64,000 nucleotides of DNA, taken from NCBI RefSeq assembly GCF_022846255.1, contig NZ_AP025682.1; one strand, 5' to 3'. The notes under the pieces were generated by a model that saw nothing but the letters and a program-made list of their open reading frames with translations, made no database searches and was not told the origin of the DNA. This stretch comes from Escherichia coli. GTDB lineage: Bacteria > Pseudomonadota > Gammaproteobacteria > Enterobacterales > Enterobacteriaceae. The position numbers and the translations under genes are program-made. This document shows positions 40,229 through 40,533 of the stretch, in pieces (positions within the stretch are counted from its first letter, which is position 1; every line of letters begins with the position of its first letter).

Positions 40229-40456
40229 GATTGTCTGCTCCCTTGTCTTGTTATGGGAGCAGTATTTCGTTGCGGGTAAGTTTGATAAAGGAATTAAAAC
40301 GTCTTGTTAATAACAAAGCGTTTTTAGAAAAAAATCGGCAATGGTTAGCGAGTTTGCGCATTTTGCTACTTTTAACAAACATCGCCTGATGTGGCGCTCA
40401 CGCCTCTTATCATGCCTACAAATACAGGGGCCGGATAAATTTTATTCTCCAGTGTT

Positions 40457-40510
40457 ATATACTATAGGGGGGTATGCATTGACATATAGCATACCCCCCT
40501 ATAGTATATT
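40457..40510 (+). promoter_or_regulatory. frmR promoter/operator: 20-bp perfect inverted repeat (TATACTATAGGGGGGTATGC ... GCATACCCCCCTATAGTATA) flanking TTGACA
   Basis: Perfect inverted repeat with an 11-bp spacer containing a TTGACA -35; the right arm overlaps the -10 region; 25 nt upstream of the frmR start. Consistent with known FrmR autoregulation at a C-tract/ATAGTATA site. Confidence 0.6.
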
Positions 40511-40533
40511 GCATGCAGATGATGAGGTGCGAA

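Follow-up and report, generated by a model that had tools for sequence, protein, structure and literature searches.

It is very probable that the site between tauA and frmR in Escherichia coli exists with three alternative contents, and that the sequence analyzed here, a stretch of 64 kb that we call the window, carries the compact one, with both promoter modules intact in sequence. The tauA gene, which encodes the substrate-binding protein of the taurine ABC transporter (a 320-aa ORF at 39266-40228, minus strand), is the first gene of the tauABCD operon, followed on the same strand by tauB (38486-39253), tauC (37662-38489) and tauD (36814-37665). On the plus strand, frmR, the gene of the formaldehyde-responsive repressor (40534-40809, ATG at 40534), is followed by frmA (40844-41953) and frmB/fghA (42045-42878). 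The names tauA, frmR, frmA and fghA are those given in the RefSeq annotation of a 99.7%-identical stretch of strain 2015C-4136CT1. The two operons lie back to back, with exactly 305 bp between the start codons of tauA and frmR (40229-40533); the coordinates given in the initial annotation are exact, and its spacing of about 300 bp is confirmed. The same annotation had assigned most of the interval to the frmR promoter/operator, which was an overstatement. The interval is made up of a tauA leader/promoter module of 138 bp (40229-40366), a spacer of 64 bp (40367-40430) and a frmR module of 103 bp (40431-40533). Neither promoter is truncated in the window, and the interval as a whole looks like a complete and functional divergent promoter region. 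An Rfam search found no known RNA in the interval, the only matches being miRNA hairpins on the operator palindrome that scored 21-28 bits, against gathering scores of 73-140. Three small ORFs (40231-40389, 40251-40382 and 40341-40601) are out of frame with the known genes and were judged to be spurious.

The contents of the site were counted over 5,426 complete E. coli genomes. The yai-type tauA-yaiS junction is present in 4,244 of them (about 78%), the compact, contiguous tauA-frmR arrangement in 594-597 (about 11%), and the OI-20-type tauA junction of O157:H7 in 451 (about 8%); by subtraction, about 137 genomes (2.5%) have none of the three junction classes. In the yai allele, which is the K-12 type, a divergent tauA promoter is followed by ~590 bp of AT-rich DNA and the genes yaiS-yaiP-yaiX-yaiO. 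The OI-20 allele combines a conserved tauA promoter with fusR-fusK-uhpC-like-afuABC, and the compact allele of the window combines a conserved tauA promoter with the 64-bp spacer, which contains a REP element. OI-20 is an O-island of EHEC O157:H7 that encodes the FusKR two-component system and the AfuABC sugar-phosphate transporter (PMC4546632), and at the site in O157:H7 we find genes for a response regulator and a MASE1 histidine kinase, a uhpC-like gene and an afuABC-type ABC transporter. The alleles part from one another at window position 40266/40267 (yai) or 40366/40367 (OI-20) on the tauA side, and, towards frmR, at ~40431. The flanking genes are hemB-tauDCBA and frmRAB-yaiL in the window, K-12, Nissle, O157, NY1601, DETEC-S792 and other Escherichia species; the site is both variable between strains and enclosed by core genes, as are replacement sites of the K-island/O-island type. 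The annotations of K-12, Nissle and O157 show neither an integrase nor a tRNA gene there, and the site lacks these marks of a classical integrative island. The sole mobile element at the site is an IS2 inside yaiX, which among the matches listed occurs only in K-12-derived strains. Carriers of the compact allele include EPEC O127:H6 E2348/69, ST131 and a large group of strains at 98.8% identity.

The tauA leader (40229-40266, minus strand) is common to all three alleles and conserved across genera. It contains a Shine-Dalgarno sequence, GGGAG, and a candidate -10 hexamer, AATACT (40261-40266). In work from 1997, van der Ploeg et al. reportedly placed the tauA transcription start ~26 nt upstream of the ATG and mapped the positions of the activator binding sites, and AATACT would fit this start. 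Upstream of the leader lies a promoter block of pan-enterobacterial type (40267-40366, minus strand), presumed to be the region through which the activators CysB/Cbl act. This block of ~100 bp is 97-100% identical to the corresponding flank of O157 and ET201, can be aligned with sequences from Citrobacter, Klebsiella, Enterobacter and Raoultella, and has been kept from Escherichia through Enterobacter and Raoultella. Our scan for a sigma-70 consensus promoter on the tauA side found none, which is as expected for an activator-dependent promoter and does not amount to positive evidence for one. Probably, tauA of the window is still driven by the promoter that responds to sulfate starvation and depends on CysB/Cbl. 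We also considered whether the Shine-Dalgarno sequence might be hidden in a leader hairpin formed by the 8-nt inverted repeat CTGCTCCC/GGGAGCAG (40235-40242 / 40255-40262). The repeat overlaps the Shine-Dalgarno sequence and would also overlap the inferred transcription start; the hairpin is unsupported, because its 5' arm varies without compensating changes among 76 distinct enterobacterial upstream sequences.

The module upstream of frmR (40431-40533, plus strand) is also common to all three alleles, and its left edge lies ~103 bp upstream of the ATG. It contains the FrmR operator (40457-40509, not assigned to a strand), which is a perfect 21-nt inverted repeat (40457-40477 / 40489-40509) with the arms ATATACTATAGGGGGGTATGC / GCATACCCCCCTATAGTATAT and which is composed of tandem ATAC-G/C tract-GTAT sites. 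At the E. coli Pfrm promoter, tandem FrmR sites of this composition are known to make a large inverted repeat (PMC5146963). As far as sequence can tell, the operator of the window matches the published one, and it has the features of a type I operator of FrmR, a member of the CsoR/RcnR family. The operator is interlocked with a sigma-70 promoter-like site on the plus strand (40479-40507), which has 10 out of 12 consensus matches: its -35 hexamer TTGACA (40479-40484) lies in the operator loop and, after a 17-nt spacer, its -10 hexamer TAGTAT (40502-40507) lies in the right arm. In the window, frmRAB is likely to be under the control of an FrmR-repressed Pfrm, and the tauA and frm promoters would be located ~200 bp apart, back to back. 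In K-12, the right arm of the operator contains one mismatch (GAATAC vs GCATAC), whereas the arms in the window, Nissle and O157 are perfectly complementary over 21 nt.

The two modules are separated by the compact-allele spacer (40367-40430, 64 bp, no strand), which we found only in compact-allele loci, namely those of E. coli 2015C-4136CT1, NY1601, Escherichia sp. E1V33 and E. albertii. It holds one REP element, at about 40384-40419, which matches two other copies in the window (61570-61605, 89%; 43046-43081, 86%) as well as intergenic repeats of K-12 near mhpE-mhpT and yaiL-frmB. The element is intergenic and fits the REP class, whose members are imperfect palindromes of ~35 nt with many intergenic copies in a genome. 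In NY1601, 11 bp are deleted within the REP. When we looked for a source of the 64-bp spacer in OI-20 loci, yai loci and other genera, nothing was found beyond generic REP matches. A separate repeat was observed downstream of frmB: the frmB-yaiL spacer (window 42879-43000) matches, at 82-85% identity, a ~100-bp unit present in ~4 tandem copies between mhpE and mhpT in K-12 (374915-375383). This match overlaps a REP-like match at 42945-42959, and another one lies just outside it, at 43046-43081.

In K-12 MG1655, 5,350 bp (379882-385231) lie between the same two start codons. This interval (region b0357-b0365) contains yaiO, yaiX split by IS2A (insC1/insD1), yaiP, ykiC and yaiS. Thus, the initial annotation correctly stated that K-12 has yaiO, an IS-disrupted yaiX, yaiP and yaiS between frmR and tauA, with ykiC as a further gene, and it was also right that the window does not have this yaiO-yaiS block at the site. 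Since tauA and frmR are not adjacent in K-12, the observation holds. Pairwise comparison showed that the two sequences are homologous up to window position 40266 (K-12 385194), 38 nt upstream of the tauA ATG, and again from window position 40431 (K-12 379984), 103 nt upstream of the frmR ATG. Between these points, the window contains 164 bp (40267-40430) and K-12 contains 5,209 bp. Judged from this alignment, the difference between the two is a replacement, and not a clean insertion or deletion. The replaced part takes in everything upstream of the candidate tauA -10 hexamer, and the break in the K-12 promoter falls exactly at the upstream edge of this hexamer. Compared with the K-12 sequence upstream of tauA (385195-385330), the window block 40267-40366 shows ~57% identity, with conserved patches, which places the K-12 promoter further from the conserved type than that of Citrobacter (71-76%). 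By this measure the tauA promoter of the window is the conserved type, and the yai-linked promoter of K-12 is the divergent one. The K-12 block had been described as an accessory island. This is appropriate in so far as its content is variable and not core: the block is beside tauA in none of 76 loci of other genera, it is also absent there in E. albertii, and its G+C content is 45%, compared with 52-56% in the flanks. It is not, however, a peculiarity of K-12, because the yai allele is the majority allele in E. coli.

To place the three alleles in a wider context, TauA was used to scan species-representative genomes, which yielded 80 loci. Five Escherichia loci beyond the E. coli collection were available, with E. 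fergusonii, E. marmotae and E. ruysiae not among them. Firstly, the compact allele is also found in the type strain of E. albertii and in Escherichia sp. E1V33, where the 305 bp are colinear with those of the window and include the REP. In the alignment we counted roughly 25 substitutions between E. albertii and the window over these 305 bp; the identity of E. albertii over window 40000-40499 is 90.2%, in line with the 84-91% of its flanking genes. The yai allele is present in E. whittamii, and the OI-20 allele in a divergent representative classified as 'E. coli'. Secondly, outside Escherichia we found OI-20-type genes (fusR-, fusK- and uhpC-like genes and afuABC) upstream of tauA and divergent from it in more than 30 species-representative loci, belonging to Citrobacter, Klebsiella (oxytoca group), Raoultella, Enterobacter, Lelliottia, Leclercia, Silvania and Huaxiibacter. 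The proteins they encode are 76-97% identical to those of O157, a range broadly comparable to that of TauA and HemB. In Citrobacter, mhpT is found beyond afuC. None of the OI-20-type/tauA loci of other genera is adjacent to frmRAB. OI-20-type genes are not confined to the tauA site and are also found as a mobile island: E. coli DLI.5a has, beside ulaD and next to a tyrosine integrase, a fusKR-uhpC-afuABC cluster of 94% identity (locus L087, 1131-10387).

On balance, we favor the view that the window carries the compact allele of a long-standing three-allele site whose contents would have arisen in the following order. The OI-20-type order beside tauA would be the older state and would predate the genus Escherichia, because it is common to other genera. 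The compact allele would have been derived from the OI-20 type early in the genus, by the loss of ~8 kb with a REP at the joint; derivation from the OI-20 type is suggested by the 138-bp tauA flank that the compact allele shares with OI-20 alleles, and an early date by the presence of the compact allele in E. albertii. The yai allele, finally, would have arisen by replacement on a compact-type frmR flank, because the first 12 nt of the frmR-side flank are the same in compact and yai alleles, and differ at 4 positions in OI-20 alleles. The boundary shared by all alleles on the frmR side (~40431) may correspond to the edge of the frmRAB acquisition in Escherichia. As far as the loci compared allow us to judge, a clean deletion of OI-20 or of the yai block would not yield the compact allele, as its spacer has no counterpart in OI-20 or yai loci.

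An extension of the reading given in the initial annotation would be that the compact arrangement is the ancestral state of Escherichia, and that the yai block and OI-20 were inserted later. In line with this, E. albertii and E1V33 carry the compact allele at species-level divergence, the frmR-side boundary lies near 40431 in all three alleles, both the yai cassette and OI-20-like clusters are found elsewhere as mobile DNA, and the G+C content of the yai block is below that of its flanks. We nevertheless regard this sequence of events as unlikely, though it deserves to be kept in mind. Many other genera have kept the gene order afuCBA-uhpC-fusK-fusR-tauABCD-hemB, and an insertion of OI-20 would need to have re-created exactly this order together with the conserved 138-bp tauA flank. 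Furthermore, a simple insertion does not account for the yai allele, in which the REP spacer is absent and the tauA promoter has been replaced. The description of the window as the simpler arrangement stands to the extent that the yai block is absent from the site; simpler does not necessarily mean ancestral, since OI-20 genes adjoin tauA in most other genera. Given that OI-20-like clusters can be mobile, E. coli could also have re-acquired OI-20 at this site.

A far less probable origin of the compact site is a recent deletion of the yai block from an ancestor resembling K-12 or Nissle, for example by recombination between short repeats or mediated by an IS. In its favor, the tauA and frmRA flanks of the window are 99.8-100% identical to those of yai-bearing strains such as Nissle and DETEC-S792. 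However, yai alleles contain nothing that corresponds to the 164 bp at 40267-40430, whose first 100 bp are the tauA promoter that is conserved across enterobacterial genera and missing from yai alleles, and the same 305-bp structure is found in E. albertii. A deletion cannot create a conserved promoter block and a spacer, and this effectively refutes it. An assembly artefact, in which a collapsed or mis-joined contig dropped the intervening genes, has a negligible probability, as 594-597 complete genomes share the junction, among them the reference strain E2348/69 and genomes listed with the ST131-type cassette of the cobU island, and so do two other Escherichia species.

The alleles also appear to be exchanged between strains. 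Across positions 37-41 kb, the flanks of the site in the window are 99.8-100% identical both to Nissle and DETEC-S792, which have the yai allele, and to 2015C-4136CT1, which has the compact allele, and the closest 12-kb match to the window in the collection (99.1%) is yai-bearing. Because the same flank haplotype carries different alleles, we infer that the alleles swap between E. coli lineages by homologous recombination in near-identical flanks, close to the junction. DETEC-S792, which has the closest 12-kb flanks, contains an IS200C transposase gene between frmA and frmB (locus L089, 12367-12825). The window contains the mhp operon (mhpT-mhpR, 43746-52427), which 2015C-4136CT1 lacks. In both Nissle 1917 and 2015C-4136CT1 mhp is absent, and yaiL adjoins a glxA fragment and lacI; the tau-frm segment of the window (36814-41953) is 99.8-100% identical to that of these two mhp-less strains. 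These relationships suggest that the tau-frm/mhp region of the window is a mosaic.

The statement that the yai genes are missing applies to the tauA-frmR site and to the 64-kb window, anywhere in which we found neither yai-like nor OI-20-like DNA. Elsewhere in the species, 838 of the 5,426 genomes have a ~90% identical yaiS-yaiP-yaiX-yaiO-like cassette in an island beside cobU/cobS. This cassette consists of genes for a PIG-L deacetylase, yaiP, an LbetaH acyltransferase and yaiO, and it is located near ibrB-like genes and IS fragments (strain Esc4, locus L005, 7965-11171). Its carriers include strains labelled ST131, such as EC958 and JJ1886, and an 85% identical copy is present on plasmid NZ_CP041438.1. 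Among the matches listed, seven genomes combine the compact site with the cobU-island paralogue, for example 4/1-1 and AR_0086 of the 98.8% group. The main-site block and the paralogue have only the four genes in common, without their flanks; neither the AT-rich yaiS-tauA spacer nor the divergent promoter was found in the cobU island.

Each allele crosses species boundaries: E. coli shares the compact allele with E. albertii and E1V33, the yai allele with E. whittamii, and the OI-20 allele with the divergent lineage. Tentatively, and with slightly less than even confidence in the combination as a whole, we propose that the site is an ancient multi-allelic polymorphism that has been maintained or exchanged across Escherichia species, that the K-12 tauA promoter, the one studied by experiment, is a derived and highly divergent version that travels with the yai cassette, that ~20% of E. 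coli have the conserved promoter, and that OI-20 is the older arrangement. If true, this would mean that about one fifth of E. coli, including the strain of the window, regulate tauABCD through the conserved enterobacterial promoter, and that OI-20, which is usually called an EHEC pathogenicity island, is an older chromosomal arrangement. Several points follow for the use of reference genomes. The gene neighborhood of K-12, which often serves as the reference, is one of three alternatives, and conclusions on tauABCD regulation that are based on the K-12 promoter may not transfer to strains with a compact or OI-20 allele, such as ST131, E2348/69 and O157:H7. In addition, OI-20 (fusKR-afuABC), which the EHEC literature treats as an acquired island, has the gene order of other genera at tauA, and this bears on accounts of virulence evolution. 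The comparison yielded three by-products: a compact allele that is old and crosses species, a divergent tauA promoter in K-12, and an OI-20 order that is the same as in other genera.

The compact site of the window is ordinary: the locus is already known to vary (the K-12 yai segment and O157 OI-20), and this version of it has been sequenced and annotated before. Its closest relatives over 601 bp are 2015C-4136CT1 (99.7%), E2348/69 (99.5%) and strain 4/1-1 with its group (98.8%). The compact E. coli loci and that of the E. albertii type strain share with the window the colinear ~305 bp, the tauA block, the REP spacer and the FrmR operator. The O157:H7 OI-20 locus likewise lies between tauA and frmR, and its 138-bp tauA-side flank is 97-100% identical to that of the window, but it has ~8.0 kb of genes where the window has the 64-bp REP spacer. 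K-12 MG1655, in turn, has the same flanking operons in the same orientation, and is 98-99.6% identical in the tauA leader up to the candidate -10 hexamer and in the frmR module from position -103; it differs in having no REP spacer, and in having 5,209 bp in place of the 164 bp of the window.
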